The notes beneath the pieces are model-generated. The model was given only the letters and a program-made list of their open reading frames with translations, did not search any database and was not told the origin of the DNA. A program made the position numbers and the translations under genes. Of a stretch of 64,000 nucleotides of DNA, positions 10,085-52,723 are shown piece after piece (position 1 is the first letter of the stretch; every line of letters begins with the position of its first letter). Source of the DNA: an uncultured bacterium (GTDB lineage Bacteria > Patescibacteriota > Patescibacteriia > Patescibacteriales > UBA12465); the NCBI GenBank assembly GCA_903945435.1, contig CAJAVM010000003.1, positions 1,352-65,351 on the forward strand. The letters are read 5' to 3'.

Positions 10085-10130
10085 ATTTAGCTAAGACTTG
10101 CCTTTTTTAGGCTTTTATTGTACGATTTAA

Positions 10131-10527
10131 GGGTTATCAGGGTGAGCGGGCAATTACTCTTTCTAAGTTTAGGCTTAAAAGGGGAGGAAAGTCCGGACTT
10201 CACTAAAAATGGTAGTGGGTAACGCCCACCGGGCCGTTTCGGTTAAAGTCGTGCGGTCAAGGGACAGTGCCACAGAGACAATACTAATCCTGGATTTTAT
10301 AACAGGAAAAAAGGTGAAAAGAAGCTGGGTGTTTCGCAAGGAGCTACCGGTTTCGCTCCTCAGCAATGAGGATAGCGTGGTAAACCCTACCAGAAGCAAG
10401 AGCAAACTTTCTTTTAACTCTCGGGTTATGAGAAATGACAAGTGGCTCGCATGAGCTTATTAGTAATAATAAGCCTAGATAAATGATTGCCTAGAACAGA
10501 ATCCGGCTTATAGCTGCTCTGATAACA
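10131..10527 (+). ncRNA. rnpB: RNase P RNA (bacterial type A)
   Basis: P4 core GGAGGAAAGTCCGGACT is conserved, as are GGGTAACGCCCACC, CAAGGGACAGTGCCACAGAGACAA and the 3' ACAGAATCCGGCTTATAG. The P1 stem ggttatcag(10132-10140) pairs with ctgataac(10519-10526). Confidence 0.8.
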
Positions 10528-36587: not shown

Positions 36588-36661
36588 TCGGGGATCGTCT
36601 AACGGTAGGACAACAGGTTCTGGTCCTGTTTATTGGGGTTCGAATCCCTATCCCCGAGCCA
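36588..36661 (+). tRNA. tRNA-Gln(CUG), CCA encoded
   Basis: TCGGGGATCGTCTAACGGTAGGACAACAGGTTCTGGTCCTGTTTATTGGGGTTCGAATCCCTATCCCCGAGCCA. 7 bp acceptor stem, anticodon loop UUCUGGU (anticodon CUG), T-loop GGTTCGAATCC. Confidence 0.8.
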
Positions 36662-36725
36662 ATACGATTTTGGTGTTTAAGACCGACACAAGGCATTAAA
36701 CGTTAGCCAAAATACAAAGAAGTTC

Positions 36726-36746
36726 AGCTTATACTGAGCTTTTTTG
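36726..36746 (+). terminator. rho-independent terminator downstream of lysS/tRNA-Gln
   Basis: agcuua-uac-ugagcu followed by UUUUUU. Confidence 0.4.
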
Positions 36747-36892
36747 TTGGAGTCAAGTGAGTGTAAACTGGTGTAAATAATGAAAAATATTGGTTCGAAT
36801 ACGAGTTCTGTCAAAATATATTTTATAAAAATGTTTCCGAAAAGTTATTGCTATATTTCAGCCATTTTTAGTATGGGCTGGCTAAGTAAAAC

Positions 36893-37699
36893 ATGCTATT
36901 ATGTCAGTGTAATAATATGCCTAATTTTAATAACTTAGATTTAAAAAATTGGAAAGATTCAGAGATTTGGACTGATAGTCTTTGGATTATTAAAGAACGT
37001 GATAAGTCGGGGAAACACGACGGTTTTTATCATGGCAATTTTGTTCCGCAAATACCTCATCAATTAATTTTAAGATATAGTAAAGAGAATGATGTAGTCT
37101 TTGATCCATTTTTAGGTAGCGGCACAACGGCATATGAATGTGAAACTTTAAAGAGACATTTTGTTGGTATAGAAATTCAACCAACATTAGTTAAACATGT
37201 GCAATCAAAACTCGATAGTAAAAAGAATTTCTTTGAGATTTTAGCGGCTGATAGCACTGAAGAAAAGACTTTTAATAAAATAGAAGAAGCTTTAAAGAAA
37301 CATAAGAGAATAAAAGTTCAATTGGCTATTTTACATCCACCATATGCTAATATTGTTAAGTTCAGTGATAATAAAAACGACTTATCTAACGCTAAAGATT
37401 TAAGACAATTTTTGAATCAATTTTCTAGTGTTGTTAAAAATACTTTGACTATTTTAGAAAAAGGGCGGTATATTGCTATAGTTATGGGCGATAAGTATGA
37501 AAAAGGCCAATGGATACCGTTGGGTTTTTATTGTATGAATGAGGCTTATAAGTTGGGTTTAACGCTAAAAAGCGTTATAATAAAGAATATGGAGGGAAAT
37601 AGGGCTAAGCAAAATAAGGAAGGAATCTGGCGTTACCGAGCTCTAACTAGCGATTATTATATTTTTAAACACGAATATATATTAATTTTCAAATATTAG
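36893..37699 (+). CDS. site-specific DNA methyltransferase (amino-methyltransferase, N6A or N4C)
   Basis: Motif I DPFLGSGTTAYEC...FVGIEI and motif IV ILHPPY. The true start is likely M9 (MPNFNN...). Confidence 0.65.
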   Translation: MLLCQCNNMPNFNNLDLKNWKDSEIWTDSLWIIKERDKSGKHDGFYHGNFVPQIPHQLILRYSKENDVVFDPFLGSGTTAYECETLKRHFVGIEIQPTLVKHVQSKLDSKKNFFEILAADSTEEKTFNKIEEALKKHKRIKVQLAILHPPYANIVKFSDNKNDLSNAKDLRQFLNQFSSVVKNTLTILEKGRYIAIVMGDKYEKGQWIPLGFYCMNEAYKLGLTLKSVIIKNMEGNRAKQNKEGIWRYRALTSDYYIFKHEYILIFKY

Positions 37700-37700
37700 T

Positions 37701-38381
37701 ATGACAAATAATGAATTATTTTTAGAACTTGCGAAGCCAAATAAAGATGGTGTGAGTCGCTGGGTTCCAGTTTCAGAATTTATTGGTAAATATAAAAAAC
37801 TTCAACTTGGAAATGGTGGAAGTTGGTGCCGAGCTAGTTCAAGCTTGGCAAAGAAATACATTGTCGAGTTTGATAAAAATAAAACAGCCGGTAATTCTAT
37901 TGACGGAGTTCGCTTGGCTGGTTTTAATAATAAAAAAATATTAAACCAAAATATTAGAAAAGATATAAAAGATTTTTATAAAGTACAAAACTGTGTGATG
38001 CTTGGGGTTAATGGTAAATCTGAAAATACAAAGATAGAAATAGATCACAAAGATGGTAGAAAAGAGGATCACAGACTTTCAAATTTAAAAGAACAACAAA
38101 TAACTGATTTTCAACCACTTTCAAAAGCGGCAAATGATATTAAAAGGCAAATTTGCAAAAGATGTAAGGAAACTAATAAACGTTGGAATGCAAAAAATAT
38201 TAAGGGTAATCCATTTGATTTTTATGCAGGAAATGAAAATTATTCTGAAGAATTGGGATGTAAAGGATGTTACCAATATGATCCTGTAGAATACAGGAAA
38301 GTTGTTGTTAGAAAAGTTGGTGAATTATCAGCAAAGGAAGCGGTAGATAAGGTTTTTAAAAAATTATACCCAGAAGAATAA
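37701..38381 (+). CDS. putative restriction endonuclease (HNH-like), sandwiched between two methyltransferases
   Basis: The EIDHKDGRKEDHRLSNL segment plus CKRC and CKGC cysteine pairs resemble an HNH/His-Me finger nuclease core. Its position, 1 bp after the MTase stop and 10 bp before the next MTase, supports an R-M role (inference). Confidence 0.35.
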   Translation: MTNNELFLELAKPNKDGVSRWVPVSEFIGKYKKLQLGNGGSWCRASSSLAKKYIVEFDKNKTAGNSIDGVRLAGFNNKKILNQNIRKDIKDFYKVQNCVMLGVNGKSENTKIEIDHKDGRKEDHRLSNLKEQQITDFQPLSKAANDIKRQICKRCKETNKRWNAKNIKGNPFDFYAGNENYSEELGCKGCYQYDPVEYRKVVVRKVGELSAKEAVDKVFKKLYPEE

Positions 38382-38390
38382 CAATAAAAT

Positions 38391-39455
38391 ATGAATTACA
38401 TAGGCAGTAAATTATCGTTGTTAGAGTTTTTAGAAAATTCTATAAAAAAAGTAGCTAAAAAAGACTGCAATGTTTTTTGTGACTTATTTGCTGGCACAGG
38501 TATCGTCGGATCATATTTTAAAAAGAAAGGTTTTAAAATTATAGCTAACGATATCCAGTATTACAGCTACGTTTTGAATAGACATTATATTAAAAATCAT
38601 AAACCACTTGAATTTAAAGGTTTGTTTGAATTGATTGCCACTTTGAAAAGTGAGGACATTAAAAATAGGGGAGCTATTGTTTTAGATTATTTGAATAATT
38701 TAAAAGGCAAAAAGGGATTTATTTACAATAATTATTGTTTGGGTGGGACAAAAAACAAGACTGAGCAAAGACTTTATTTTTCGGATGAAAACGGTTTACG
38801 ATGTGATGCTATAAGACAAAAAATAGAAGAATGGAATAACGGCAAAAAAATTAATGAGAATGAATATTATTTTTTATTAGCCAGCTTAGTTGAATCCATT
38901 GATAAATATGCTAACACAGCTTCTGTCTATGGAGCCTTTTTAAAGAGTCTAAAAAAATCTGCTTTAAGGCCTTTAGTTATGAGCCCTGCCGAATTAATAA
39001 TTAATGACCAAGAGCATGAAGTTTACAACGAAGATATTAATTCGGTTGTTAAAAAAATAAAGGGGGATATTTTATATCTTGATCCGCCATATAACCAAAG
39101 GCAATACGCCACGAATTATCATATATTGGAAACAATCGCTAAATATGATAGCCCTGATATTCATGGTAAAACTGGTTTAAGAGAGTATCAAAAACAGAAA
39201 TCTTCCTATTGTTCAACAAATCAGGTTAAAAAATCTTTTAAAGATTTAATCACTAATGCTGACGTTAAATATATATTTTTAAGTTACAATAATGAAGGAT
39301 TAATGAGTGCAGAAGATATAAAAGAAATAATGAGCACTAGGGGTAAATATGGATTTTTTACTCAGGAATATTCTAGATTTAAAGCAGATAAAAATAGGGA
39401 ATATAAAGCTGAAAAAACAGTAGAATATTTACATTATGTTGTCTGCAATAACTAA
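38391..39455 (+). CDS. Dam-family (D12 class) N6-adenine DNA methyltransferase
   Basis: MNYIGSKLSLL start. Motif I DLFAGTGIVGSYF. Motif IV LDPPYNQ. Confidence 0.8.
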   Translation: MNYIGSKLSLLEFLENSIKKVAKKDCNVFCDLFAGTGIVGSYFKKKGFKIIANDIQYYSYVLNRHYIKNHKPLEFKGLFELIATLKSEDIKNRGAIVLDYLNNLKGKKGFIYNNYCLGGTKNKTEQRLYFSDENGLRCDAIRQKIEEWNNGKKINENEYYFLLASLVESIDKYANTASVYGAFLKSLKKSALRPLVMSPAELIINDQEHEVYNEDINSVVKKIKGDILYLDPPYNQRQYATNYHILETIAKYDSPDIHGKTGLREYQKQKSSYCSTNQVKKSFKDLITNADVKYIFLSYNNEGLMSAEDIKEIMSTRGKYGFFTQEYSRFKADKNREYKAEKTVEYLHYVVCNN

Positions 39456-40074
39456 CCATATCGATTCGATAGCGACTTCAGCCGTGACAGCTGTATTAGT
39501 CTTTTTTATCACTAGTCGTATAGATAATAAGTTAAGAGAAAAAAATAATAAACATGAGTTTATAAGAAATCGTGAGTATGATACCCATGAAAATGTTTAT
39601 GAAGAAATTCAAAAGCTAAAAAATGACCCAGAAACAGGCTGGGCTTTTCGTTCTAGTAAAAAAGAAAAATTAGAAGAGCAAAATAATTTAAGTTTTTCTG
39701 AGTTCTGTAATGTCACCAAGAAAATTGAATTTCATAATTTAAATATTGATGGAGCTGAATCTTATATTTTAGACATTATAAAAGATAAAATTATATCTGA
39801 TATAAAAAAGTTATCTCGTCGTAGTAAAAATAAAATTCAGCAAATTTCTAAGGAAATAATTATTAAATATGAAAATGATTTTGAAGTAATTAATTCCGAG
39901 GTAGATGATTTAGTGGAGGGCTTTGGTTATTATGAAGGTAAAAAATTGTCTTTTGATGAGAGTAATTATGTTAGTTATTGTAAGACGCAAAGAGAAATAG
40001 TTCTATTAAATTATTTAGCTCCATTATTAAATAAACTTGAAATTGAACTTTCTGATTATATTAATTTAAAGTAA
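39436..40074 (+). CDS. hypothetical protein (N-terminal TM helix)
   Basis: 212 aa ORF overlapping the upstream MTase by 20 bp. No motifs recognised. Confidence 0.3.
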   Translation: MLSAITNHIDSIATSAVTAVLVFFITSRIDNKLREKNNKHEFIRNREYDTHENVYEEIQKLKNDPETGWAFRSSKKEKLEEQNNLSFSEFCNVTKKIEFHNLNIDGAESYILDIIKDKIISDIKKLSRRSKNKIQQISKEIIIKYENDFEVINSEVDDLVEGFGYYEGKKLSFDESNYVSYCKTQREIVLLNYLAPLLNKLEIELSDYINLK

Positions 40075-41413
40075 TCTTTTTTTCTCTCATAACCAGTTTA
40101 CTCTCTAAACAGCTTAATACTTCTCGCTTCTCAATAATCGACCCCTCTCTAAGCACGTATTTAGCGTAGTTTCTCATATCAACATCTTTCTGCTTATTAA
40201 AGTCTATTTCAGCTGTTCCGAGCAAGCCTTTACTGAATTTGTAGTATCTTTCAATTTCTTCATTGAATTGGTTTTTTAAGCCGATGTCATTTATATCTAG
40301 CTTATCAATTACTTGAGTTAATTGTTCAATTAATTCTTCTTCTCGAAGATAACCGCCTTTGCAGTTTATATTTTTAGCTCTAGAACATCCGTAATATACA
40401 TATCTTCTAACTGACCCATCGGCCAGTTTTTTAAATTTTTCTTCAGCCGAAATGCCTGATCCGCAATGTCCGCATTTGATAAGCTTGGTAAAGGCAAATT
40501 CCTTACAGTCTTGTCTAGAAATATTACCTCGGCTTAATTGCTCATTCGCTTTCGTATATAACTCTTTTGATATAATCGGATCGTATCCGCCTTTATACCA
40601 TTTATCGCTTCCAACTGGATATTCAAATTCGCCATAGTAGAATGGTTCTTTTATCATCCGCTGAACCATACTGATTGTCATGAACTTATTATTTTTTGTC
40701 CGCAAATCAGTTTCATCTTTTAGCCATCTATATATGCGCCGACAGCTATATTGCTCATTGGCTACTTTTTCAAATAATTGTTTTATTATTGGAGCTCTTT
40801 TAGGATCTATAAATACTTTTTTAGCGCCTTTGTCCGCATATTTATCATGTATGTATCCAATCGGCGCTCGCCCAGGACGCCAACCTTGTTCGCACTTAGC
40901 CCTTAATCCTCGTTTAACATTTTCGCCCTTATGGTCATTTTCTAATTTAGCTTGAGAACCTAGAATCATTAATAAAAATTTTTCATTAGGGCTGTTAGTA
41001 AATCTTTGGCCATGAGTTCTAATTTCTTTAATTAACCCCTGATCCATTAAATCAACCATCGCCCCTAAGTCGCCAGCATTACGGCTTAACCGATCAGGCG
41101 CCCAGCAGAGGATTCCATTAAAGATACCTCTTTTGATATCTGTAATTAATTTATTAAAAACTGGCCTCTGTCCAGAATCTTTAGCGGAATGACTTTCCTT
41201 TCTTACCTCAGTTATTTGAATATTATCCCTTATGGCCATTTCCAGCATTTCCTTTATTTGCGAGTCTATTGAAAGAGCCTGCCTTTCATCTTCTTCGGTT
41301 GATTTTCTGGCGTATAAACAGTATTTCATCTCTGTTTCTAATGCCTCTAAATTAGCCCTATTTTGGCCTCCTAGGGCTGTTTTATGCTCTAGTACCGTAG
41401 TTGCTTGGTTCAT
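40061..41413 (-). CDS. large serine recombinase (resolvase/invertase catalytic domain + recombinase domain + zinc ribbon)
   Basis: N-terminal YARKSTEEDERQALSIDSQ (the catalytic Ser context of the resolvase family). Zinc-ribbon cysteines CGHCGSG...YVYYGC. 450 aa. Confidence 0.85.
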   Translation of the reverse strand: MNQATTVLEHKTALGGQNRANLEALETEMKYCLYARKSTEEDERQALSIDSQIKEMLEMAIRDNIQITEVRKESHSAKDSGQRPVFNKLITDIKRGIFNGILCWAPDRLSRNAGDLGAMVDLMDQGLIKEIRTHGQRFTNSPNEKFLLMILGSQAKLENDHKGENVKRGLRAKCEQGWRPGRAPIGYIHDKYADKGAKKVFIDPKRAPIIKQLFEKVANEQYSCRRIYRWLKDETDLRTKNNKFMTISMVQRMIKEPFYYGEFEYPVGSDKWYKGGYDPIISKELYTKANEQLSRGNISRQDCKEFAFTKLIKCGHCGSGISAEEKFKKLADGSVRRYVYYGCSRAKNINCKGGYLREEELIEQLTQVIDKLDINDIGLKNQFNEEIERYYKFSKGLLGTAEIDFNKQKDVDMRNYAKYVLREGSIIEKREVLSCLESKLVMREKKITLN

Positions 41414-41520
41414 ATGGTTATAGTTGTTATAACCAATTAATGACGCTATTAAACAGGGAAGTCTAGGCCTAGCTGTTGGTAACTTAACTTTACTTTTTGG
41501 CTATTTCAAGTTATATTTTA

Positions 41521-41684
41521 AGTGCAAAACCACAAGTTAATATCGTGAAGCACGCGCCAATTTTTTTGGTAGCCTTGGCTTATTCGTATACAGGAACGGG
41601 CATTCCGACCTAATACGAGTAAGCGTCTTCACGGACACTTCTTGTGGTTTTGCAACCAAGGTCGGGTGTCCGTTTTTGTTTTTA
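41521..41684 (+). other. large imperfect inverted-repeat / candidate structured RNA with alternative terminator hairpin
   Basis: Stem A is gcaaaaccacaag(41523-35)/cttgtggttttgc(41640-52). Stem B is cgtgaag(41543-49)/cttcacg(41626-32). Stem C is gcttattcgta(41577-87)/tacgagtaagc(41613-23) with a U-G pair. The tip hairpin is ggaa-cgggca-ttcc. A competing hairpin cggacac(41631-37)/gtgtccg(41665-71) is followed by tttttgttttt. Confidence 0.3.
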
Positions 41685-41724
41685 TAAAGCGGACATTAGA
41701 TATTTATAAATTAATTATAAATTT

Positions 41725-42030
41725 ATGAAAAAATGTCCGTTTTGCGCCGAAGAAATACAAGACGATGCTAAAAAATGCCGTCATTGCGGAGAATATCTTG
41801 ATAAAGATAATAAAATTAAGGTAAGTAAGCATTCTGATTATGCTACGGTCACAATTATTTCCGCCATATTGCCCGTTATAGGCATTATTTTAGGAATTGT
41901 TTATCTCACTAAAAATAGCAAGGCAGATAAAAAATTAGGCGAACACGCAATTGTTGGCAGTATTTTATTTAGTATATTGTGGTTTCTAATTTTGTTAGTA
42001 TTAGGAATCCCTAATTTTATAGTTATTTAA
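41725..42030 (+). CDS. zinc-ribbon domain membrane protein
   Basis: N-terminal CPFC...CRHC zinc ribbon followed by two TM helices. 101 aa. Confidence 0.55.
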   Translation: MKKCPFCAEEIQDDAKKCRHCGEYLDKDNKIKVSKHSDYATVTIISAILPVIGIILGIVYLTKNSKADKKLGEHAIVGSILFSILWFLILLVLGIPNFIVI

Positions 42031-42066
42031 TATTAGTTTTATTAGCAGTCAGCTAATTATAAATTT

Positions 42067-42477
42067 ATGAAAAAATGTCCATTTTGTGCAGAAGAAATTC
42101 AAGATGACGCAAAAAAATGCCGTCATTGCGGGGAGTATCTTGATAAGGGTAATGTTTCTAATAAAATCAACAAAGACGGTAGATTTGATGGATTCATTGA
42201 TTTCTTAAAACGAAAATATCCCGCTTATTCCGTCGTGTCTGAAAATTATGAAAAAAATTATATAGTGCTTAACAAACAGTTAAGCGGTTTAAATCCTTTG
42301 CTGTTTATTATATTACTTCTTCTTTGGATTCTGCCAGGCGTTATATATCTTATCGTGTCTTTAAGTAGTAAAAAAATATTATCATTGACCATACAATTTA
42401 ATGAAAACAATGAGCCAGTTTCTGTTAGCGACGCGAATTTCAATTTTTTAATTGTTAAATATAAAGAGAATAATTAA
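42067..42477 (+). CDS. zinc-ribbon domain membrane protein (tandem paralog of 41725..42030)
   Basis: The first 27 aa (MKKCPFCAEEIQDDAKKCRHCGEYLDK) are identical to the upstream gene, as are 15 nt of 5' leader. A TM helix follows. Confidence 0.55.
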   Translation: MKKCPFCAEEIQDDAKKCRHCGEYLDKGNVSNKINKDGRFDGFIDFLKRKYPAYSVVSENYEKNYIVLNKQLSGLNPLLFIILLLLWILPGVIYLIVSLSSKKILSLTIQFNENNEPVSVSDANFNFLIVKYKENN

Positions 42478-42488
42478 TAGTGAGTAAT

Positions 42489-43949
42489 TTATCTCATCCC
42501 GTAGTACTCTTTATTGTGTTCCCAAATTCCAAAAGATGCAGGCCTTCTTTTATCTAAAATAATTTCATTTATCAGTAGGGTAAAAGCATCGACGAGATCA
42601 TCGTGTTTTTCTATGCCGAAGCCGACCATTTGACTTATTAATTCTTCAGCGCCATTTTTAGGAAATAGTATTCTTCCTGATTTTATTAAATATGTTGTCA
42701 TACTTAGCCTAGACAATTTATCATATCCGCCAATTTTAACGCCTTTGCTCGGGTACCCATCGCTTTTTAATTGCTGGGTGAAGGCACTTTGATAAGCCAC
42801 TTCTTCAACTAATATTTCTATTGGCTTGCCTCCTCCTATAACACTTGATGATAGTTTAATGTTCTCTATTGCTTCGGGAAATTCCATCCTTTTATTTATT
42901 AAATTGGGCAAAATATAAATTTTCATATCTTTGTCATATCCATACACCCTTGCACTTACCGCCGCCGTATAATCTGCGGTGGTTTTTGTTGATATAGCTA
43001 AATCAACGCCCATTTTTTCATAGCGATAATTATCTGGCGGAAGGGAATCATAGTACTGTAGCCATTCTTCACGGACAACTTGATCTTCGGCTGGTAATAT
43101 CTTCAGCATGAATTCTCGGTTGAAAGTGACCGCATCATAAGTATTTTTTAAATCTTCAATACTCTCATAAGTCGGGTATCTGCTAGGCCAGAGAACAACC
43201 CCATCTTCATTTATAAGCGGGTATGCTTTATAAACACCACCTCTGATTTTATTATCATTTATTTTTGCTTCCAGTCTTTTAATAACTGAGTCTTGGTGTA
43301 AGAGATTTCCAATTACAACAACAACTGTGTTCATATCTCCAGCTGGCAAAACTTCGCCCATTAGCCAATTAAATGATTTATCCCGCCCCTCCTTAGTTTT
43401 AACTGATTGAAGGTCTTCAATATCGTCGACAACAATTAAGTCTGGGCGGTATTGATTGTGTCTGGTTCCTCTAACGCTCTGTTCGACTGAAGCAGTTGCT
43501 ATTCTGGCATTGAATTTTGTCAGCACTAAAGTTTGTGAACCCCATTGATTAGGTTCTTCTTTGAATGGTCCCAGATCGCCTTTAAGTAATTGATTCTTTT
43601 CTAATTCACTCTTTATGCTTTGGAGCATGGTTTGTGCCTTTGCTTGGGTCTGGCTGATAAGAAGAACGTATTTCTTTTCAAGCTTACCCATAATCGCCCA
43701 GAGAGGATAAGAAAGACCCATGATAGTTGATTTGGCTGATCCTCTAAAAGCAACCACAACCATCATCTTATTTTTTGTGTCTTCAGTCAGACTAAACATT
43801 TCTCTTTGAAACATTGCTGTTTCCACTGTCACATAATGATTCATGTAAAGATAGAAAAACCAGTAATGACTTTCCTTAACAGTGGCCAAGCGAACCAGCC
43901 TATCGGTTAACAATTTATTAATTATTTTTTCAGTCGTTAGCTTTTTCAT
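42489..43949 (-). CDS. phage terminase large subunit
   Basis: Walker A-like VAFRGSAKST. Walker B LIVVDDIED. C-terminal RNase-H-like nuclease motifs (EKMGVDLAISTK ... GIEKHDDLVDAF). Confidence 0.7.
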   Translation of the reverse strand: MKKLTTEKIINKLLTDRLVRLATVKESHYWFFYLYMNHYVTVETAMFQREMFSLTEDTKNKMMVVVAFRGSAKSTIMGLSYPLWAIMGKLEKKYVLLISQTQAKAQTMLQSIKSELEKNQLLKGDLGPFKEEPNQWGSQTLVLTKFNARIATASVEQSVRGTRHNQYRPDLIVVDDIEDLQSVKTKEGRDKSFNWLMGEVLPAGDMNTVVVVIGNLLHQDSVIKRLEAKINDNKIRGGVYKAYPLINEDGVVLWPSRYPTYESIEDLKNTYDAVTFNREFMLKILPAEDQVVREEWLQYYDSLPPDNYRYEKMGVDLAISTKTTADYTAAVSARVYGYDKDMKIYILPNLINKRMEFPEAIENIKLSSSVIGGGKPIEILVEEVAYQSAFTQQLKSDGYPSKGVKIGGYDKLSRLSMTTYLIKSGRILFPKNGAEELISQMVGFGIEKHDDLVDAFTLLINEIILDKRRPASFGIWEHNKEYYGMR

Positions 43950-44344
43950 ATATTTTTATCAAGAGCTGCTAGTTTGAGTGCTTGCTTTACGGCTTGTTTC
44001 TGCTCTTTAGTTAATTCAAGAGTATGTTCAATTTTTCCTTTTAACTCCAGTTTGTCAGCATAAACAGGGTGATTATTTCTTAACCAAAAAAAGATAGCTT
44101 GCATGCTTTTATCCTTGATGCCTGATATCAGCTGTGATTCGGCGATGTCATTTATAAATAAGCGCCCCTCAAGGAAAGCTTTATCAACTTGCTCGGAAAA
44201 CTTTTTATCTTCCTTTTTCCAGCGATAGAAGGTTGTTCTGCCAATGCCGTTTTTTTCACAAACCAGCTGGATAATAGGAGTTTTTCTCAAGCCCTCAATT
44301 ATCAGTGCCTTGCCACTATTTTTTGCTTTTGTTTCTTTGTCCAT
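43946..44344 (-). CDS. putative phage terminase small subunit (HTH)
   Basis: 132 aa. HTH segment GIGRTTFYRWKK. It overlaps the terL start by 4 bp. The call rests on position and domain inference. Confidence 0.45.
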   Translation of the reverse strand: MDKETKAKNSGKALIIEGLRKTPIIQLVCEKNGIGRTTFYRWKKEDKKFSEQVDKAFLEGRLFINDIAESQLISGIKDKSMQAIFFWLRNNHPVYADKLELKGKIEHTLELTKEQKQAVKQALKLAALDKNI

Positions 44345-44349
44345 ATTAT

Positions 44350-45201
44350 TTAATTTAATTTTTTAGCTTTTAATCCAGTTAACTTTTCAAATCTTTCTAT
44401 AATTGTCTGGCAATATTCTGGATCTAGTTCTATCATTAAGCATTTTCTTTTTGTTTGTTCGCAACTGAGTAAAGTCGTTCCCGATCCCCCAAAGGGATCA
44501 TATACATAATCACCTATCTTAGAACTGTTTAATATCAGTTGACGCATTAATGATAAAGGTTTTTGCGTAGGATGACTTTTGCTACTACTCGGTTTAGGAC
44601 AGAAGATTACACTCTTGTCTTTTGACTTAGTAAATAGATGTGTGCCGAACCATGAAAAAATTATGAGCTCGTGCTGAGGCAGATAATCTTTGCGCCCAAC
44701 TACGGCCTGATTTTTTACCCAAATTAGAAGTTGTGAAAAATGGATACCTATTTCATCCATTGCTTGTTTTAAAGCAAATAGCATGATGTCGCTATTAAAA
44801 ATGTAGATGGAATTTTTCTTATCCAGAAAGGGAAGTGCTAATGAAAGCCAACTTTTGGTAAATGTTTTATATTCATCATTGCTTTGAATCTGGTCATTAG
44901 CAATTTCTTTTGGCTTACTTAATTTTTGGGCAAATCCCGCTTTTGATTGGCAATACGCGCAACCATATGGTGGGTCGCAAGCAATTAGCCTGATTATGTC
45001 TTGGCCGATAAGTTTTGTAACGCTTTCTTGATCGCAGGCGTCTGAGCACATCAGCCTATGATTTCCCAGCTGATAAATTTCACCTGTCTTAATTAAGTTT
45101 TTTAGCTTTTGTGTTTGCATATTTTTCATAGCGATTAATAATAAGTTGGCAGAAAATTGGATTGATTTCCGCCGTGTAACATATTCTGTTAAGCTGTTCA
45201 C
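44350..45201 (-). CDS. phage-type DNA methyltransferase (beta-class N6A/N4C; DPPY then DPFGGSGTT)
   Basis: Motif IV CDPPYG precedes motif I DPFGGSGTT. The called start is a GTG at 45201 that overlaps the upstream gene by 113 bp. The ATG at 45129 or 45120 is more likely the true start. Confidence 0.7.
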   Translation of the reverse strand: MNSLTEYVTRRKSIQFSANLLLIAMKNMQTQKLKNLIKTGEIYQLGNHRLMCSDACDQESVTKLIGQDIIRLIACDPPYGCAYCQSKAGFAQKLSKPKEIANDQIQSNDEYKTFTKSWLSLALPFLDKKNSIYIFNSDIMLFALKQAMDEIGIHFSQLLIWVKNQAVVGRKDYLPQHELIIFSWFGTHLFTKSKDKSVIFCPKPSSSKSHPTQKPLSLMRQLILNSSKIGDYVYDPFGGSGTTLLSCEQTKRKCLMIELDPEYCQTIIERFEKLTGLKAKKLN

Positions 45202-46363
45202 ACGCTAGAAGAGTCGACCCCGATCCAGCGTAGATGTCTAATATAATATCGCCAGGCTTAGAACAGCGTTTTAAAGGCTTCTCGTGGAGATTTAAAGGTT
45301 TTTGTGCCGAGTGTTCGTAGTTTGATCCAATATCTCTTTTAGCTAGCCAGATATCTAAAATATCAATTATATTATCTATTGCCCTATTGCCTGATTCTAT
45401 TTCTTTGTTTAAAGCTTCACAGGCTTTAGTTGATAGTTTGGATAGGAACGGCTTGCCAGTTTTTCCGTATATACAAAATTCGGTCGCCTTATTAAATGCG
45501 ACATTAGGCGTAGGATTGAACGCACCCTTGAACCAGAAGCAGGCTCTTTCGTTCTTTATGCTTAGTTCTCGGTATAGAGTTTGGATTAACCAGATATTTG
45601 ATTGATCGCACCAAGTGAAGTAATGGCAATTTTCCTTTGCGTGTTTTAAAGAATTTTTTAGTCCAGCTAATAGAAATTTTTTATATTCATCATCGGTTTT
45701 ATTATCTTTAATATCTCCGCCGTAATTTGAACGATTACCGACCCCTTTATCATAATTTAGCCCAATATTAAAAATTGGATCATTATAGATTAGGTCGGCT
45801 TTGTTTTCTCCAAGTAATTTGTCCAGTGTTTCTGTTTTGTGGCTATCTCCACAAATCAAAAAGTGCTTGCCTAGCTGGAAGATGTCACCTAACTTTATGT
45901 CAGTCTTATTTATTTTCTGCAATTCCTTTTCTTCATTAAAATTATCATTCTCAATTTCAATGTCATTATCAAAAACCTGAAGTAAATCATCTTCATTTAA
46001 TCCAGATTCAAGTAAGATATCTAAATCTATTTCCTTGAGAAGCGAATAATTCCATGATCCATGATTAGAGTTGCTTCGAAGTAAATATTCCTTGAATTCT
46101 TTTTCATCTAGCTGACGGTTAGGAACTCTAACGTCTATTTCTTCTTCGCCTCTGTCCAGTAATTGCAAAACACGGATTCTTTGATGGCCAGCTAGAATCT
46201 GACCGCTTATTGTTATGGCAGGTATCTCGGCGAGATTGAATTTTTTAATACTGGCTTTAAGATCACTTAATTGTTTATCCGACATGATGCGCGGATTTTT
46301 TTCGTAGGGAAGCAGGTCGTTGACTTTCCGCTTCTCTGTGTGCCAAATGATTTGTTTGGTCAT
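45089..46363 (-). CDS. ParB-like nuclease domain fused to DNA methyltransferase
   Basis: N-terminal ParB-N motif (ILAGHQRIRVL). C-terminal MTase motifs NDPIF and DIYAGSGSTLLACEQ. The C-terminus is paralogous to the downstream MTase (...NRYEKYANTKAKKLN versus ...ERFEKLTGLKAKKLN). Confidence 0.7.
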   Translation of the reverse strand: MTKQIIWHTEKRKVNDLLPYEKNPRIMSDKQLSDLKASIKKFNLAEIPAITISGQILAGHQRIRVLQLLDRGEEEIDVRVPNRQLDEKEFKEYLLRSNSNHGSWNYSLLKEIDLDILLESGLNEDDLLQVFDNDIEIENDNFNEEKELQKINKTDIKLGDIFQLGKHFLICGDSHKTETLDKLLGENKADLIYNDPIFNIGLNYDKGVGNRSNYGGDIKDNKTDDEYKKFLLAGLKNSLKHAKENCHYFTWCDQSNIWLIQTLYRELSIKNERACFWFKGAFNPTPNVAFNKATEFCIYGKTGKPFLSKLSTKACEALNKEIESGNRAIDNIIDILDIWLAKRDIGSNYEHSAQKPLNLHEKPLKRCSKPGDIILDIYAGSGSTLLACEQLNRICYTAEINPIFCQLIINRYEKYANTKAKKLN

Positions 46364-47354: not shown

Positions 47355-50231
47355 TTGTTTTTAGGAGTAAAGTCTAAATATAATTATAAAAGAAGCAAAA
47401 ATATGATTCAACAAAAATTTCCAAGAGGCTCGGAGTGGAGAAAATGGGATTTGCACGTGCATACTCCAGCTTCATTTTTTTGGGTAGGAGGCAAAAAATT
47501 AAAGGATTTATCTGATGAAATTAAGGAAGGCCATGTTGAATCAGAAAAAGATGAAGAAATAAAAAAATTCATAAAAGCCGTTAATGAATCGGACGTAGCA
47601 GTTTTTTGTATAATGGATTATTGGACGTTTGATTGGTATATAGAGCTAAAAAAATATTTACTAAGGCACCCAGGAGAATTGAACAAAACCATTTTTCCTG
47701 GTATGGAGTTGCGTGTTGAATGCCCAGTTGACTATAGACTCAATATTCATTTTATTTTGTCAGATAAATTAACTGAACAGAATTTAAATGATTTTAAGTC
47801 AGAATTAATGATAAGATCAGTTAACAGAAAATTGTCGGAGGAGGCCTTAATTGCTTCTGCAAAAATGCTAGACGCCAGTAAGGCTGCGGTGCATGGATAT
47901 GGAGACCCGTCTGTTTTGTCCGATGAAAAGTTATTAGAATTAGGTTCTAAAACGGTAGAAATAACAAAAGATTCTTTAAATACAGCATTAAAAAATATTC
48001 CGCCAGAGTCAGGCTATATTATTTTACCATATGATACCTCCGATGGACTTATTGATTTGGATTGGAAAACTCATCCACACGATGATAATTATTTCATGCA
48101 AACGGCTAGTATTATTGAAACTAGAAAAGCGGATAATGTAGATTTGTTCAATTGTTTGAAAACTGAAGCAAATAAAGATTTTTTTATTAATTTTAGTAAG
48201 ACTATTAAAAATACACCAAAACCATGTGTTTCTGGAAGTGATGCCCATGAGTATAAAAATTATGGAAAATATCCATCTGATAAAATTACATGGGTTAAGG
48301 CTGACCCAACATTTGAAGGTTTAAAACAAATAATATATGAGCCAGTAGATAGGGTTAAAATTCAAGAGTCTAGACCGGAAGAAAAAGATGATTACCAAGT
48401 TATAGATAAAATAAATTTTATAGACAATAAGTTTTTGCCAGACGATATATTAATAAATGAAAACTTAACAACGATTATCGGAGGTAAGTCTACTGGAAAG
48501 TCAGTTTTATTAAGAAATATAGCTAAAACTATTGACCCCGAAGAAGTTAAAACAAGACTTGGAGAGGTTGGCTTATCTGAATACGAAAAAGATGTAGAAG
48601 GATTCAAGGTTATTTGGAAAGATGGGCAGGAAAATGTTAAAAATGAAGATAAAGGAGTTAGAAAAAAAATTATTTATATACCGCAATCATATCTCAACAG
48701 ACTGGTAGATAAAAAAGAAGATAAAACATCTATAGACGAAATAATCAGAAATGTTCTACAACAGGATGATGAGGTAAGCAAAGCATTTGAGGAATTGAAA
48801 GAGTTTGAAAGAAATAATGAAAAAGAAATTTCTAAAAATGTGGATGATCTTTTTTACTCCAAAAAAGATTTTGCTGAACAATCTGAACTTATCAAAAATA
48901 TTGGCGACAAAAGGGGTATTTCTGAACAAATAAAAAGATTAGAGGTAGAAATTAAGGATTTGAAGGAAAAGGCTGGCATGACCCCCGATCAGATTTCTAA
49001 TTATAATTTATTAACGGAGAAAATAGGCAAAATAAAAAAGGAGAAGGAAGTAATTAACAACGATTTAATTTATTTAGATGCATTATCAAAAACAGATCCA
49101 TTCTTATTTATAGACTTTGAAGGGATTTCGTTGGAAATTAAAAATGGAATTTCCACTGATTTTGATAAATTAAAAATGGAATTTATTATTTCATGGCAGG
49201 CTCGTATTAGTGTAAGTGTAGGCAAACTTAACGAGGATTTAATCACAAAGGAATTAGAATTAATATCGGCTACAGATGAGTTAAATCCGTTATTAGAAAA
49301 AGCTAGAGAGAGTCGTGCATTAAATGAAAAAATTTCTAGATTAGATGGCGAAAAAAGTAAACTTAACACAATAGAAAAAGAAGAGTTGAAGCTAGAAAAA
49401 ATTAGACAAAATTATTTTAAATCGTTGTCTAATATGTCCGAATTGCACTTGGAATTTTATAATAAATATTTTGACAGTAGGGCTAAAATATTGAAACAGA
49501 CTATCATAGATGGAGAGATAACTTTTGATTTAAACGTTTCTTTCAGAAGTTTGTATTTTCAGAAAAATATTAATGAAATATTTGACCAAAGAAAATTGTC
49601 TAAATTTACCGATGTTAATATATTAGATTATTCATATTCTGATAATATTAATTTAAAACAGGACATAAGCAAAGTTATTTCTGGAATTTTATCTGAAAAG
49701 TTAGTCTTGAAAAGTGGCTATTCAAAAAAGGATGCAATAAATAAGATGTTACAGAATTGGTTTTCTTTAGATTATGCTATTAAGCAGAATGATGACGATA
49801 TTTCACAGATGTCTCCAGGAAAGAAGTCATTTGTTTTATTGAAATTATTAATAGAGCTTGATAAAAGCAAGTGCCCTATATTGTTAGACCAGCCAGAAGA
49901 CGATTTGGATAACAGATCTATATATAATGATTTAGTTAGGTTTATAAAAGATAAGAAGAAAGGAAGGCAAATTATTATAGCAACGCATAATCCGAATTTG
50001 GTTATTGGTGCGGATGCTGAAAATATTATTGTTGCCAACCAAAGTGGTGAAAAGACCCCAAACAAAACTTTTCAATTTGAGTATGTCACAGGCTCTATTG
50101 AGGATTCTTTTGAAAATAGTGGAGAAACAGCAATTTTATATCAGAAAGGTATTCAAGAACACGCCTGTGATATATTAGAAGGCGGTGAAGATGCCTTTAA
50201 GAAGCGAAAGCGACAATATAGTTTTAATTAA
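47355..50231 (+). CDS. PHP-domain phosphoesterase fused to ABC/Rad50-like (AAA_15/AAA_21-type) coiled-coil ATPase; Ppl-like
   Basis: PHP motifs WDLHVHTP, GMELRV and SGSDAHEY. Walker A IIGGKSTGKS. A coiled-coil of about 250 aa. A signature-like MSPGKKS, Walker B ILLDQPEDD and the H-loop IIATHNP. The called start is TTG at 47355. The ATG at 47403 (MIQQKFPRGSEWRKWDLHVHTP) is more likely the true start. Confidence 0.7.
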   Translation: MFLGVKSKYNYKRSKNMIQQKFPRGSEWRKWDLHVHTPASFFWVGGKKLKDLSDEIKEGHVESEKDEEIKKFIKAVNESDVAVFCIMDYWTFDWYIELKKYLLRHPGELNKTIFPGMELRVECPVDYRLNIHFILSDKLTEQNLNDFKSELMIRSVNRKLSEEALIASAKMLDASKAAVHGYGDPSVLSDEKLLELGSKTVEITKDSLNTALKNIPPESGYIILPYDTSDGLIDLDWKTHPHDDNYFMQTASIIETRKADNVDLFNCLKTEANKDFFINFSKTIKNTPKPCVSGSDAHEYKNYGKYPSDKITWVKADPTFEGLKQIIYEPVDRVKIQESRPEEKDDYQVIDKINFIDNKFLPDDILINENLTTIIGGKSTGKSVLLRNIAKTIDPEEVKTRLGEVGLSEYEKDVEGFKVIWKDGQENVKNEDKGVRKKIIYIPQSYLNRLVDKKEDKTSIDEIIRNVLQQDDEVSKAFEELKEFERNNEKEISKNVDDLFYSKKDFAEQSELIKNIGDKRGISEQIKRLEVEIKDLKEKAGMTPDQISNYNLLTEKIGKIKKEKEVINNDLIYLDALSKTDPFLFIDFEGISLEIKNGISTDFDKLKMEFIISWQARISVSVGKLNEDLITKELELISATDELNPLLEKARESRALNEKISRLDGEKSKLNTIEKEELKLEKIRQNYFKSLSNMSELHLEFYNKYFDSRAKILKQTIIDGEITFDLNVSFRSLYFQKNINEIFDQRKLSKFTDVNILDYSYSDNINLKQDISKVISGILSEKLVLKSGYSKKDAINKMLQNWFSLDYAIKQNDDDISQMSPGKKSFVLLKLLIELDKSKCPILLDQPEDDLDNRSIYNDLVRFIKDKKKGRQIIIATHNPNLVIGADAENIIVANQSGEKTPNKTFQFEYVTGSIEDSFENSGETAILYQKGIQEHACDILEGGEDAFKKRKRQYSFN

Positions 50232-50256
50232 TTTATAAATTGGCAAAATTAATAGT

Positions 50257-51012
50257 ATGTTTAATATTCAAAATATTATAAATTTTATACCAATTGCTGT
50301 AATTATTTCAGCTATTGTTTTTTTAGTAAAATTCTTTGGAAAAGCGAGCACCGATCAGGTTCCGTTTGCTGATAATAGATCTTGGCATGAAGAATTATTT
50401 GGAATTGAATTTTTTGCCACCAGACTTGCATCTCCTTTAATATTCATATTTATTTTATATTCACGTCACTGGAATCCGCTGAAATTTACATCGGATGATT
50501 TATGGCTTTTTATTTTTGGAATTATTTCGGTAGTCATGCTTAACTTAGCTTCAAAAAATGCATTTAAATTTTTTAAAGATGATAACTTTGACGACGGGAA
50601 TCTTTTATCACTTTTAAAAAAGTTATATAAAAATAAAAATGATGAAAAGTTTGAACAAGGAGAAAATTTGTTAATTCTAAAACACCTTGTTTTCCCAGTA
50701 GTCGCTTATTTTATGATGGTGATGCTCATTCTTTTTTATGAATGGGGATCTTATTACCATTTATTAATTGCAATAATTTATTTCTTATTTTTTCTCTTAT
50801 CGTTTGCCCTTTTATTATCATTAAAAAAACGGAATATATTAAAGGCTAATATAAAATTTATCAACAATGAGGAAGAAGAAATAAAAGATTGCAGGGTCTT
50901 AAGGATAAATGAAGATAATATCAAAGTTAAAATTACAAATAATAAAGTTATAATTTTAAATAAGTCCACTGTTTCGAGGATAGAATTTGTTAATAATAAT
51001 TTGGAAAACTAA
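50257..51012 (+). CDS. polytopic membrane protein (4-5 TM) with C-terminal soluble domain
   Basis: Hydrophobic helices (IPIAVIISAIVFLV; LIFIFILY; LWLFIFGIISVVML; VFPVVAYFMMVMLILF; LLIAIIYFLFFLLSFALLL). It starts 25 bp after the PHP-ATPase stop. Confidence 0.45.
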   Translation: MFNIQNIINFIPIAVIISAIVFLVKFFGKASTDQVPFADNRSWHEELFGIEFFATRLASPLIFIFILYSRHWNPLKFTSDDLWLFIFGIISVVMLNLASKNAFKFFKDDNFDDGNLLSLLKKLYKNKNDEKFEQGENLLILKHLVFPVVAYFMMVMLILFYEWGSYYHLLIAIIYFLFFLLSFALLLSLKKRNILKANIKFINNEEEEIKDCRVLRINEDNIKVKITNNKVIILNKSTVSRIEFVNNNLEN

Positions 51013-51571
51013 ATTTATGGGCATAGCTTATAAAAATTTTTGGAGTTTAAATACCGACGAAGCCGTTGTGGCTGGTATTTTAAGAAATGCCACCAGCAAA
51101 GATGTGGAAGTGTTAATGCCGTTAAATGCCCAAATGAAAGGAGTCGATCTTTACCTGTTAAATATTAAGACTAAAAATATTATAACTATTCAAGTAAAGG
51201 GAAGCAGGGCGTATGAACCACAGAAGGCTGAAGTCAAAAAATATGGTGACGGTTCAGGCGGTTGGTTTTTCTTTCCAAAAGAAGTAGTAACTAATGCGAC
51301 AGCAGATTTTTTCTGTTTTTTGATTTACATACTTGAAGAAAACGGAAAAACAGGAAGAAGAATTATTACGCCACATACATTAATGATCCCGACGCAAGTT
51401 TTAAAAGAAAAAAGTTTAAAATATAAAAAAACCCATGGGGATGGCCGCTTTAGTTATAAGATTTGGGTTAACCCATCAGACAAAAAGGCTTTTGATTTTA
51501 GAGATGAAAAAATTGATTTCGATGATTTTTTGGATAAAAAAGGTTTTGCTGTGATTAATAAAGAATTATAA
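50987..51571 (+). CDS. hypothetical protein, possible PD-(D/E)xK (restriction-endonuclease-like) fold
   Basis: E...D...QVK pattern (DVEV ... GVDLYLLN ... IQVKG). The true start is probably the ATG at 51017 (MGIAYKN). Inference only. Confidence 0.3.
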   Translation: MLIIIWKTKFMGIAYKNFWSLNTDEAVVAGILRNATSKDVEVLMPLNAQMKGVDLYLLNIKTKNIITIQVKGSRAYEPQKAEVKKYGDGSGGWFFFPKEVVTNATADFFCFLIYILEENGKTGRRIITPHTLMIPTQVLKEKSLKYKKTHGDGRFSYKIWVNPSDKKAFDFRDEKIDFDDFLDKKGFAVINKEL

Positions 51572-51585
51572 ATATTTTTCTTGGT

Positions 51586-52719
51586 ATGATTGAAGAATTT
51601 TTTAAAAAAGATCCAATTGAAAAAGTTGAAAGAGAACTGAGATTTTTGGTGTGGGATATCCTTTCTCAGAAATACGGTGAAGGCTGGATTTATAATGAGG
51701 AAATTATTTGCAAACAAAAATGGGCAGATGAATTAAAAAAAGTTTTTGAAAAAGATAAAAAAATACAACATAACGATAATATTCGTGAATTGTTGATTTC
51801 ATATGCCGATTTTTTTGACATAAAAAAGCTTATAAAGAAAAATCGATCATTATTTGAATCTGTTTTTTCTAATTTTGAAGTTATTGTCGGCTATATTGAA
51901 ACTATTATTGGTCTTCGTAATGCAATTAAACATCATCGCGATATCTCATTAAATCAGCAACATCTTTTAATAGGAATATGCGGAGAAATAATTGATGCAA
52001 TTAACCTCTGGAGAATAGGATCAAAAATAGAATTAGATCGAATCGTTTTGTCTTTTAATGATTATATTGCGACTGAGGGGAAAAGTGAAACGCAAATTTT
52101 GTCGGAGGCAATTGAAAAAATAAATGAAATTCAAAATATTTTTTTGCATTCTTTAAAAAGTAATAGTATTGAGATTTTTAATACGAATAATAGTAGTGAT
52201 TTTGAAACCGTAATTAATACTCAGTATATTAAAATTGAGATAAGAACAAATAATAAAATCACTCCTGACAGTAAAATAGACAATATAGAATATAAGACTA
52301 TTCATAGTCGCTTGAGCTACAAAGCTGAATGCCCAGTGTCCCTAGACTTGATAATGGCAAATACAAATAAAACCTATCGGGTTATAGAGTATCTATTAAA
52401 AGGATTTATAGATATTAATCGTTTGAAAGAATGGTCTGAAAGACAGGCGGGGCTAACTCCTGGATCAAGCGTTGCCACGAACGGATCTTTTGATAGTATT
52501 GATTATGGTTTTTTGGGTGGAAAAATTAGAGTTCAGGCGGGGAAGCATGTGAATGAATTAAATGAAATTTGCGGAAAATTATCTTTATTGAATAATATTA
52601 ATGCTGAAAAATGGAATCCGCATTCAAATATAACGCCTAATGATTTAATAGGATTTATGCTTGGTAATATTTCTTCAAGAACTATCATGAATCTTTACAG
52701 AGAATCATTAGGTAAATAA
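51586..52719 (+). CDS. HEPN-domain protein (Rx4H motif), Abi/Swt1-like
   Basis: LRNAIKHH at aa 110-117 (nt 51913-51936) gives the HEPN Rx4-6H signature in a helical context. 377 aa. Confidence 0.4.
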   Translation: MIEEFFKKDPIEKVERELRFLVWDILSQKYGEGWIYNEEIICKQKWADELKKVFEKDKKIQHNDNIRELLISYADFFDIKKLIKKNRSLFESVFSNFEVIVGYIETIIGLRNAIKHHRDISLNQQHLLIGICGEIIDAINLWRIGSKIELDRIVLSFNDYIATEGKSETQILSEAIEKINEIQNIFLHSLKSNSIEIFNTNNSSDFETVINTQYIKIEIRTNNKITPDSKIDNIEYKTIHSRLSYKAECPVSLDLIMANTNKTYRVIEYLLKGFIDINRLKEWSERQAGLTPGSSVATNGSFDSIDYGFLGGKIRVQAGKHVNELNEICGKLSLLNNINAEKWNPHSNITPNDLIGFMLGNISSRTIMNLYRESLGK

Positions 52720-52723
52720 AAAA

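Follow-up and report, generated by a model that had tools for sequence, protein, structure and literature searches.

A conserved RNA at the head of exchangeable cargo genes beside a serine recombinase in Patescibacteria-type genomes

A conserved RNA in a divergent spacer

The stretch analyzed here, which we call the window, comprises 64,000 nucleotides (nt) of contig CAJAVM010000003.1 from an uncultured patescibacterial bacterium. Our subject is an RNA of ~160 nt encoded in a 311-nt divergent spacer of this window, flanked on one side by the gene for a large serine recombinase and on the other by a tandem pair of genes for small Zn-ribbon/transmembrane proteins. Judged by covariation among its homologues, this conserved RNA is real, under strong selection and read from the plus strand. 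We lean towards the view that it is a cis-acting, attenuator-like leader for the cargo of a mobile element and that it is not specific to Zn-ribbon genes. An earlier description made from the letters alone (the sequence-only reading) had proposed a rod of three stems and a mutually exclusive terminator hairpin controlling the Zn-ribbon genes. The features on which the argument turns are the following, in window positions.

40061-41413, minus strand: large serine recombinase (Pfam Resolvase, Recombinase and Zn_ribbon_recom), divergent from the RNA
41489-41517, plus strand: promoter found by consensus scan, with -35 TTTACT (41489-94), a 17-nt spacer and -10 TATATT (41512-17)
41524-41684, plus strand: the RNA (~160 nt), which begins with stem A and ends with the U tract; 167.8 bits with covariance model R1, whose match spans 41519-41684
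41524-41536 (GCAAAACCACAAG) with 41641-41653, plus strand: stem A, 13 bp; 98% of alignment cells paired, compensatory changes in 8 of 11 variable pairs
41543-41550 with 41627-41634, plus strand: stem B, 7-8 bp; 87% paired, double changes at 4 pairs
41554-41573, plus strand: variable hairpin between stems B and C, giving a three-way junction in the minimum free energy (MFE) fold
41578-41589 with 41613-41624, plus strand: stem C, 11-12 bp; 97.6% paired, double changes in 12 of 12 pairs
41590-41612, plus strand: apical loop ACAGGAACGGGCAUUCCGACCUA, nearly invariant
41632-41639, plus strand: internal-loop motif CGGACACU, with which the tail can also pair; taken in the sequence-only reading for the 5' strand of the terminator
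41645-41658, plus strand: alternative hairpin UGGUU-UUGC-AACCA, in which the linker pairs with the 3' arm of stem A, at the position of the last tetraloop hairpin of LOOT, an RNA motif treated below
41659-41672, plus strand: 3' tail AGGUCGGGUGUCCG, invariant; a hub with three possible partners (apical loop, internal loop and post-terminator element)
41673-41684, plus strand: U tract UUUUUGUUUUUA, in all copies, the presumed 3' end and termination point; its G has the conserved C41591 as partner in the helix of loop and tail
41687-41698, plus strand: post-terminator element AAAGCGGACAUU, complementary to the tail and U tract and also to 41733-41744 (MFE fold)
41725-41744, plus strand: opening of the first cargo gene, from the start codon on; AAUGUCCGUUUU (41733-44) is a possible partner of the post-terminator element
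41725-42030 and 42067-42477, plus strand: two tandem Zn-ribbon/transmembrane cargo genes (Pfam zinc-ribbon matches)

A scan with the recombinase, taking one genome per species, yielded 55 loci, nearly all in Patescibacteria-type metagenome-assembled genomes (MAGs), and 12 of these carry a copy of the spacer RNA that is 70-79% identical. Retrieval from metagenomes with a degenerate pattern, built from the two most conserved blocks, supplied 67 further loci and a viral scan two more, and the 74 distinct copies make up alignment A1. The MAGs are labelled Patescibacteria, Falkowbacteria, Paceibacterota, Magasanikbacteria or Saccharibacteria; single loci are cited below by number (L005 and so on). 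On A1, 95.3% of the cells of the rod are paired, as against 38-46% when the partners are slid by 1-3 columns. Changes on both sides occur in 24 of the 33 rod pairs, and none of 500 shuffles reaches the observed values, so that the compensatory covariation by which the sequence-only reading had proposed to judge its structure is present. Within the rod, G.U cells outnumber A.C cells by 215 to 28, and pairing is 95.3% on the plus strand vs 87.5% on the minus strand. This excess of G.U over A.C indicates that the object under selection is the plus-strand RNA.

The window itself agrees with the alignment. Region 41500-41710 (plus strand) has an MFE of -76.9 kcal/mol, compared with -43.8 ± 4.2 for dinucleotide shuffles (z = -7.8), and none of 200 shuffles folds as well; model R1 finds its sole copy in the window at 41519-41684. 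Stems A, B and C, all proposed in the sequence-only reading, are part of the MFE fold. That reading also took a U-G pair in stem C as a sign of structure at the RNA level, and the pair in question (t41583:g41619) is conserved as UG in 48 of the 74 homologues, in keeping with the preponderance of G.U over A.C. Of its structural observations only one, the 4-bp tip hairpin GGAA/UUCC, lacks support: the two inner pairs are broken in 27-47% of homologues and there is zero covariation. The potential for a hairpin at 41554-41573 persists across the alignment with varying length and sequence, as seen by eye and without a count. A second local hairpin, GUCU-UCAC-GGAC, was rejected, since it shows no covariation and its outer pair is often A.C or A.A.

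No known family accounts for the region. The Rfam search named as a check in the sequence-only reading was run with Rfam 15, over the whole window at the gathering score and over 41300-41900 at E <= 10, and returned none for this region; a weak RUF4 match, at 29.5 bits where the threshold is 55, is noise, and a tRNA/tmRNA scan found nothing in the RNA region. Among viral contigs the exact stem A pattern has no matches. The tail 18-mer gave two real copies there, both on one contig, and a third match (L059) that is a chance coding match. By pattern search, none of the recombinase homologues below ~70% identity has an RNA of the window type upstream.

Pairings of the tail and the post-terminator element

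The promoter implies a transcription start near G41524, where stem A begins, and the block cTTTacTT..N..TATATTttaagtGC is kept across 69 distinct sequences from upstream of the RNA. At the other end, AGGUCGGGUGUCCGUUUUUGU does not vary, and this is true also of the 12 copies that were found without use of the RNA sequence; the one exception is a G-to-A change in L005. Homology among loci with different cargo classes ends directly after the U tract.

Direct repeats of 10-11 nt (CTGTWGGTAAC / GTAGGTAAAC) lie at 41470-41488, just 5' of the -35 of the RNA promoter. They are also seen in L020, L025, L005 and L060, and are kept even where the body of the RNA is of the LOOT type. In L005 and L060 the whole promoter block is duplicated, with an extra plus-strand gene between recombinase and RNA.

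The sequence-only reading had drawn a GC-rich hairpin of cggacac (41632-38) and gtgtccg (41666-72), followed by TTTTTGTTTTT. This hairpin is present and excludes stem A in nested terms, and its pairing is well kept: CGGACACY (41632-39) pairs with GGUGUCCG (41665-41672) in 95.8% of cells, with C-to-U changes tolerated as G.U and loss in L029. As the 5' strand of a terminator, however, cggacac has a longer competitor, namely the whole apical loop, which offers the tail a 21-bp partner that recurs in L029/L045 and in LOOT-type RNAs. Loop segment 41590-41611 (ACAGGAACGGGCAUUCCGACCU) is complementary to 41659-41679, the tail and the beginning of the U tract, over 21 pairs with one bulge (-32.4 kcal/mol). 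This duplex joins the loop to its best partner in the window apart from its own antisense strand (the next best reaches -24.6), and the window holds no trans target of the loop better than the RNA's own tail. The apex-tail helix is 96.1% paired on A1. Compensatory differences occur in L005 (CCUGACC:GGUCAGG) and, as judged by eye, in L029/L045 (GGACAGUCGUACC:GGUUCGGCUGUCC) and in the LOOT-type RNAs L020, L025 and L002. The tail is followed by UUUUUGUUUUU, and pairing with either upstream partner, 41597-41611 or 41632-39, would place a helix directly before the U tract.

A further competition involves stem A. The hairpin UGGUU-UUGC-AACCA, which uses the 3' arm of this stem, is 97.3% paired with 32 compensatory cells, a result reached by none of 500 shuffles. 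At one position the triplet formed by the 5' arm, the 3' arm and the linker reads C/G/C in 31, U/A/U in 20 and A/U/A in 11 of the 74 copies. Such three-way covariation argues for two competing pairings that are both under selection. The nested energies are -65.2 kcal/mol for the rod, -55.0 for the apex-tail fold and -51.4 for the terminator fold of the sequence-only reading, and rod and apex-tail helix exclude each other in nested terms. Thus the claim of mutually exclusive pairings involving a helix before the U tract has held up, in that they are conserved in the homologues.

The complementarity extends past the U tract. Each cargo class has its own spacer of 25-40 nt, the first part of which is the post-terminator element (CGGACAU, 41690-96 in the window). 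With one representative per class, the duplex of tail and post-terminator element has a mean energy of -11.6 kcal/mol, vs -5.6 ± 0.4 for shuffled spacers. The same element also matches the start of its own cargo gene (mean -8.54 vs -6.55 ± 0.43 for permuted combinations, 0 of 5000), the cognate start ranking first in 5 of 28 classes and among the top two in 9 of 28. In the window, a 12-bp helix AAAGCGGACAUU:AAUGUCCGUUUU would enclose the start codon. The sequences used differ from class to class: CGGACAU pairs with AUGUCCG at the start codon in the MSEQ class, GUCCCGAC with GUCUGGGAC in the MDYQK (bPH) class, and AUCUGGC with GCCAGAU in the MPDCP class. Loci with Zn-ribbon cargo show compensation at a synonymous site, with CGG...CCG in three and UGG...CCA in three; two loci are mismatched.

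The two Zn-ribbon/transmembrane genes of the window are themselves a tandem duplication, 89% identical over 41712-41811 and 42054-42153 and including the 13 nt before each ATG (TAATTATAAATTT). In the second copy CCA replaces the CCG of the first, within the segment that can pair with the post-terminator element.

Cargo, genomic setting and the LOOT RNAs

The sequence-only reading presented the RNA as a controller of the Zn-ribbon genes in particular. This part of its proposal fails, as the downstream gene differs among homologous loci and falls into at least 28 classes by N-terminus, and the link to Zn-ribbon genes is incidental. The classes include Zn-ribbon proteins, bPH-domain membrane proteins, DUF4352 proteins, a GIY-YIG nuclease, an MBL/beta-CASP hydrolase, NucS-like proteins, predicted proteases and secreted proteins; Schlafen/AlbA_2-like proteins occur in the same cargo arrays and, in L011, between recombinase and RNA. 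That the RNA lies directly upstream of protein genes and is co-oriented with them is borne out: 67 of 70 loci have their first downstream open reading frame (ORF) on the strand of the RNA, and in most of the loci 40-53 nt separate the tail from the start of the ORF. Convergent terminase-like, helix-turn-helix (HTH) and methylase genes follow the cargo in 18 of the 30 loci with enough flank. Upstream flank of 1.7 kb or more is available for 53 loci. In 21 of them a divergent recombinase is found no more than 200 nt away, in 11 a recombinase lies within 5 kb behind extra plus-strand genes, and in 21 there is none within 5 kb.

Three loci are of separate interest. In L084 (3532-3886) and L083 (4165-4584) the module of promoter, RNA and cargo starts 110-170 nt downstream of a tRNA gene. 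The recombinase of L084 lies at the far end of a unit of ~3.5 kb, so that circularising would recreate the divergent recombinase/RNA junction of the window, and this unit looks like a minimal integrative element. L016 has no cargo ORF after the terminator (~2050-2140, minus strand of the locus), and a long GC-rich hairpin, GGCUGGUGGCCG...CGGCCACCAGCC, stands there amid AT-rich sequence, with no Rfam match.

To the right of the cargo slot of the window lies a block kept in many loci:

42489-46363, minus strand: terminase-large-like gene, small HTH (terS-like) gene and two to three N6/N4 methylase genes

No portal, capsid or tail genes occur near this block, and the element is not a complete prophage. 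Annotated phage records hold no DNA match, and the recombinase has only ~25-28% identity to known phage serine integrases. On the left side, a tRNA-Gln gene is followed by genes for a methylase, an IceA/NlaIII-like endonuclease and a Dam-like methylase (restriction-modification, 36588-39455); no convincing direct repeats marking island ends were found around the tRNA-Gln. Further right, at 47355-53716, a 958-aa AAA_21/SMC-like ATPase and a HEPN-like protein sit amid unannotated genes in what looks like a defence-type cluster adjoining the element. A near-perfect palindrome (GGTTATAGTTGTTATAACC, 41416-41434) abuts the recombinase start codon (41413, minus strand) and could be an operator or a hairpin in the 5' untranslated region of the recombinase. 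Otherwise the window is ~33% G+C and carries housekeeping genes and an RNase P RNA. The gene content and the AT-rich composition indicate that the region is a mobile-element island in a small AT-rich bacterial genome. Ordinary Rfam matches unrelated to the RNA are RNase P class A at 10137-10526 of the window, a group I intron at 5543-5833 of L031 and a SAM riboswitch at 3639-3746 of L061.

Many recombinase homologues below ~70% identity have, in an Rfam scan, a LOOT RNA rather than an RNA of the window type. The LOOT RNA motif is Rfam family RF03000 (Weinberg et al. 2017, NAR 45:10811, PMC5737381). In eight loci (L001, L002, L019, L020, L024, L025, L030 and L033) it occupies the same slot, divergent from recombinase homologues of 57-65% identity and 5' of co-oriented cargo. 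In L001, L002, L019, L020, L024, L025 and L033 the LOOT cargo is of the same classes (Zn-ribbon, DUF4352-like). L020 and L025 have the promoter block of the window, and both RNAs occur in candidate-phyla (Patescibacteria) assemblies; the name LOOT presumably derives from the lineages OD1, OP11 and TM7. In the literature searched, LOOT is given no function and is cited only as a covariation-rich example, and the literature searched on Patescibacteria prophages and serine recombinases holds no functional description.

In both RNAs a 3' tail stands before a U tract and complements the apex of a long hairpin, and a small hairpin directly precedes the tail (of the tetraloop type in LOOT, 41645-58 in the window). 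The LOOT model in Rfam stops before the tail. In all eight complete LOOT loci, the long-hairpin apex is the best partner of the ~15 nt before the next U run (-19 to -23 kcal/mol, vs averages of -9 to -16 for shuffled tails), and the apex:tail sequences are unrelated between loci, for example GCUCCUAGUCAGA:UCUGGCUGGGGGC and CCUAUCAUUAGG:CCUAGUGGUAGG. A 14-mer of a LOOT-type tail had 43 matches among viral contigs, all of them chance except for an already known contig.

In other respects the two RNAs differ. LOOT is a series of hairpins, with a P1 domain enclosing a hairpin (CCUAA/AUGG), an A-rich linker, the long hairpin and a pair of tetraloop hairpins; in 5 of 8 loci both are GNRA tetraloops. 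The RNA of the window is instead a closed rod with a three-way junction whose 5' arms pair with the region of LOOT's hairpins, and only its stem C and its last small hairpin (41645-58) have counterparts in LOOT, as the long hairpin and the last tetraloop hairpin. The LOOT covariance model has no match at 41300-41900 even at E <= 10 and none in the whole window at its gathering score (46.4 bits); at that score it also misses the window-type RNA in 13 homologous loci, in a scan that does find LOOT in L020 and L074. Because the model misses the RNA and the topologies differ, we treat the RNA of the window as a variant and not as a member of LOOT. From their layouts, the two appear to have a common output module (long-hairpin apex, small hairpin, tail and U tract) and a common genomic role.

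L074 holds both types, with a LOOT and its cargo gene (LOOT at 9987-10105) followed 1.4 kb further on by a window-type RNA and two cargo genes (RNA at 11479-11642), a tandem array of leaders and cargo. In the LOOT units of L074 and L024 a further partner of the tail lies downstream of it and has an alternative partner of its own, with which it forms a hairpin ahead of a second U tract; the tail:post hairpin of L074 reaches -19 kcal/mol. By our own reading of these sequences, the two units appear to have the classical 1:2 / 2:3 / 3:4 layout of attenuators.

A candidate leader of mobile-element cargo

Three lines of evidence point to a switch: the complementarity of apex and tail, the three-way covariation of stem A, and a post-terminator element that complements both the tail and the cargo start. 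We therefore suggest, as the somewhat better supported view, that the RNA is an attenuator-like leader acting in cis on whichever cargo follows it. RNA polymerase would start at ~41524, and the rod, with stems A, B and C and the variable branch, would form first. An upstream pairing of the tail, with the apex or with the copy in the internal loop, would then set a helix against the U tract and cause termination, leaving an RNA of ~160 nt. These tail pairings would compete with parts of the rod, and the 3' arm of stem A could alternatively pair with the linker. With the tail caught by the apex, transcription would stop, and in any mRNA that leaked through, the post-terminator element would mask the cargo start. 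With the apex unavailable, polymerase would read through, the tail would pair with the post-terminator element, and the cargo start would be free. Candidates for what decides the availability of the apex are a protein, a metabolite, folding kinetics and temperature. By eye, the alignment has no conserved unpaired core beyond the segments complementary to the tail. This makes a metabolite pocket less likely and favours a protein or a kinetic or physical input. Of the attenuator or riboswitch architecture in the sequence-only reading, then, the structure at the RNA level, the exclusive pairings and the co-oriented genes stand, but a small-molecule aptamer is not indicated.

It should be noted that several points weigh against this proposal. 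The invariance of apical loop and tail in the main family is partly a matter of ascertainment, because the metagenome pattern fixed those bases, and the support for the apex-tail helix therefore comes mainly from the 12 recombinase-anchored copies and from the comparison across families. A helix of 13-21 bp may be strained inside a closed loop of 23 nt, or it may be compatible with an intact stem C, in which case the RNA could be a stable pseudoknot and not a switch. Complementarity to the start region is clear in only about a third of the cargo classes. The AT-rich spacer could conceal a promoter for the cargo (CGGACA-17-AATTAT), rightly placed for a leaderless start, and if this promoter is real, the post-terminator element lies outside the mRNA. 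Termination, read-through and the actual 3' end are deduced from the nucleotides themselves, no sensor pocket or effector was identified for the RNA, and Rfam types LOOT as 'Gene; sRNA'.

The last point leads to the strongest alternative, which we hold to be clearly less probable than a leader, though a serious contender: a stand-alone small RNA (sRNA) of the element, as the sequence-only reading had offered for its second option, that acts in trans or binds a protein, the apex-tail helix being a structural pseudoknot plus terminator, and the cargo being expressed independently from a slot that is merely permissive for insertion. Such an RNA would be expected to have, as this one does, a strong promoter of its own and a conserved terminator-like end, to be conserved far better than anything downstream, and to be unrelated to the identity of the cargo; the invariant loop and tail are what a fixed tertiary fold or a protein-binding surface would call for, and the Rfam type of the related LOOT agrees. 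It leaves unexplained, however, why nearly all first ORFs are co-oriented (67 of 70), mostly at a near-fixed distance, and why post-terminator elements specific to each cassette complement the tail although they lie outside the short RNA. The three-way covariation implies two competing pairings and not one fold, and no trans target of the loop was found in the window.

A small-molecule riboswitch, in which the rod and three-way junction form an aptamer and a ligand chooses between terminator and read-through, seems to us unlikely. A multi-stem junction close to the promoter, a long-range pairing of pseudoknot type beside a terminator and the alternative pairings would all suit it, and the tetraloop hairpins of LOOT, so often both GNRA, suggest a compact tertiary fold. 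Against this, the segments that are conserved and unpaired by eye are those complementary to the tail, so that a separate pocket is not evident, the downstream genes have no common metabolic theme, and there are no Rfam riboswitch matches.

It is very improbable that the selection acts on DNA, with the inverted repeats (the rod arms and the copies of CGGACAY/RTGTCCG) serving as att sites, operator half-sites or a cruciform. A large serine recombinase does adjoin, the 7-mer occurs five times in both orientations within 150 bp, and homology between classes is lost just past the U tract, in the middle of the inverted repeat of tail and post-terminator element. The strand asymmetry of 215 G.U to 28 A.C, the wobble-only variation tolerated in the partners of the tail, the occurrence of the module without a nearby recombinase, and the construction of post:start complementarity from different sequences in each cargo class all speak for RNA. 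At the 3' cargo boundary there is no repeat matching that inverted repeat, which makes it unlikely as a DNA recombination site. We give scarcely any credence to a guide- or bridge-like cofactor that specifies or regulates recombination by the neighbouring serine recombinase: this RNA or LOOT is divergent from homologous recombinases in many loci, a layout that superficially recalls the bridge RNAs of IS110, where a structured RNA sits beside its recombinase, but the loops are invariant and not programmable, the recombinase is of the serine type and not DEDD, 21 of 53 loci have none within 5 kb, the loop has no complement elsewhere in the window, and the consistent coupling is to the downstream ORF instead.

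The reading as a leader in cis can be extended to both families, and here we move to a speculation that is, on balance, rather unlikely to hold in full. The RNA of the window and LOOT may together be an unrecognised class of modular RNA switches that head swappable accessory or defence slots of small recombinase-borne elements in candidate-phyla bacteria. Their common output would be the apex-tail pseudoknot terminator, and their differing sensors, a rod in one and a body of tetraloop hairpins in the other, would answer a cellular or infection signal and release the cargo on cue. LOOT has been a covariation-rich orphan since 2017, and a second RNA in the same slot offers both families a testable function; the comparison suggests a role for LOOT-type RNAs as well. 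The genomes of candidate-phyla bacteria are tiny and contain few regulators that can be recognised, and experimental genetics hardly exists for these organisms. A control module made of RNA alone and carried by their mobile elements would, if true, be among the first regulatory mechanisms defined there, and a natural example of modular design, with one output platform, differing sensors and exchangeable payloads. The RNA also flags a cargo hotspot (nucleases and Schlafen-like, bPH and DUF4352 proteins) in which new defence or accessory genes can be sought.

Among known systems, the hotspots of P2/P4 prophages and satellites resemble this locus in having conserved flanks around a short region whose gene content varies between close relatives. 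Here the flanks are the RNA and recombinase on the left and the terminase-like, HTH and methylase genes on the right, and the cargo includes nuclease, Schlafen-like, bPH and DUF4352 genes; to our knowledge, hotspots of the P2/P4 type have not been described as headed by a conserved structured leader RNA. The integron platform, with intI divergent from Pc/attI, is similar in that a recombinase diverges from a promoter facing variable, co-oriented cargo. It differs in that the recombinase of the window is a serine and not a tyrosine recombinase, the 3' ends of the cassettes have no attC-like repeat, and the conserved element at the head of the array is a transcribed structured RNA.

Further parallels, at the level of RNA, are found in phage immunity and in attenuation. 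The CI RNA of satellite phage P4 (seqA/seqB/seqC) and the C4 RNAs of P1 and P7 are immunity RNAs derived from leaders. Like the candidate leader discussed here they belong to leaders of mobile elements, use short, mutually complementary sequences to control termination or translation, and give a stable short RNA, which in the window is deduced. They have no similarity to it in sequence or structure, however, and act in trans after processing on replication or antirepressor genes, whereas the genes downstream in the window are accessory cargo and no processing is known. Terminator/antiterminator attenuators include the trp-type leaders with 1:2, 2:3 and 3:4 pairings and antitermination of the RAT/BglG type. 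With these our RNA has in common a leader that begins at +1, a helix set against a U tract, exclusive pairings with evolutionary support, and a downstream element that pairs with a terminator strand or masks the start region. It differs from them in having no leader peptide and no known effector, in serving interchangeable cargo instead of one pathway, and in its topology, which is that of a pseudoknot, as the 5' strand of the terminator lies in the apical loop of an upstream hairpin.

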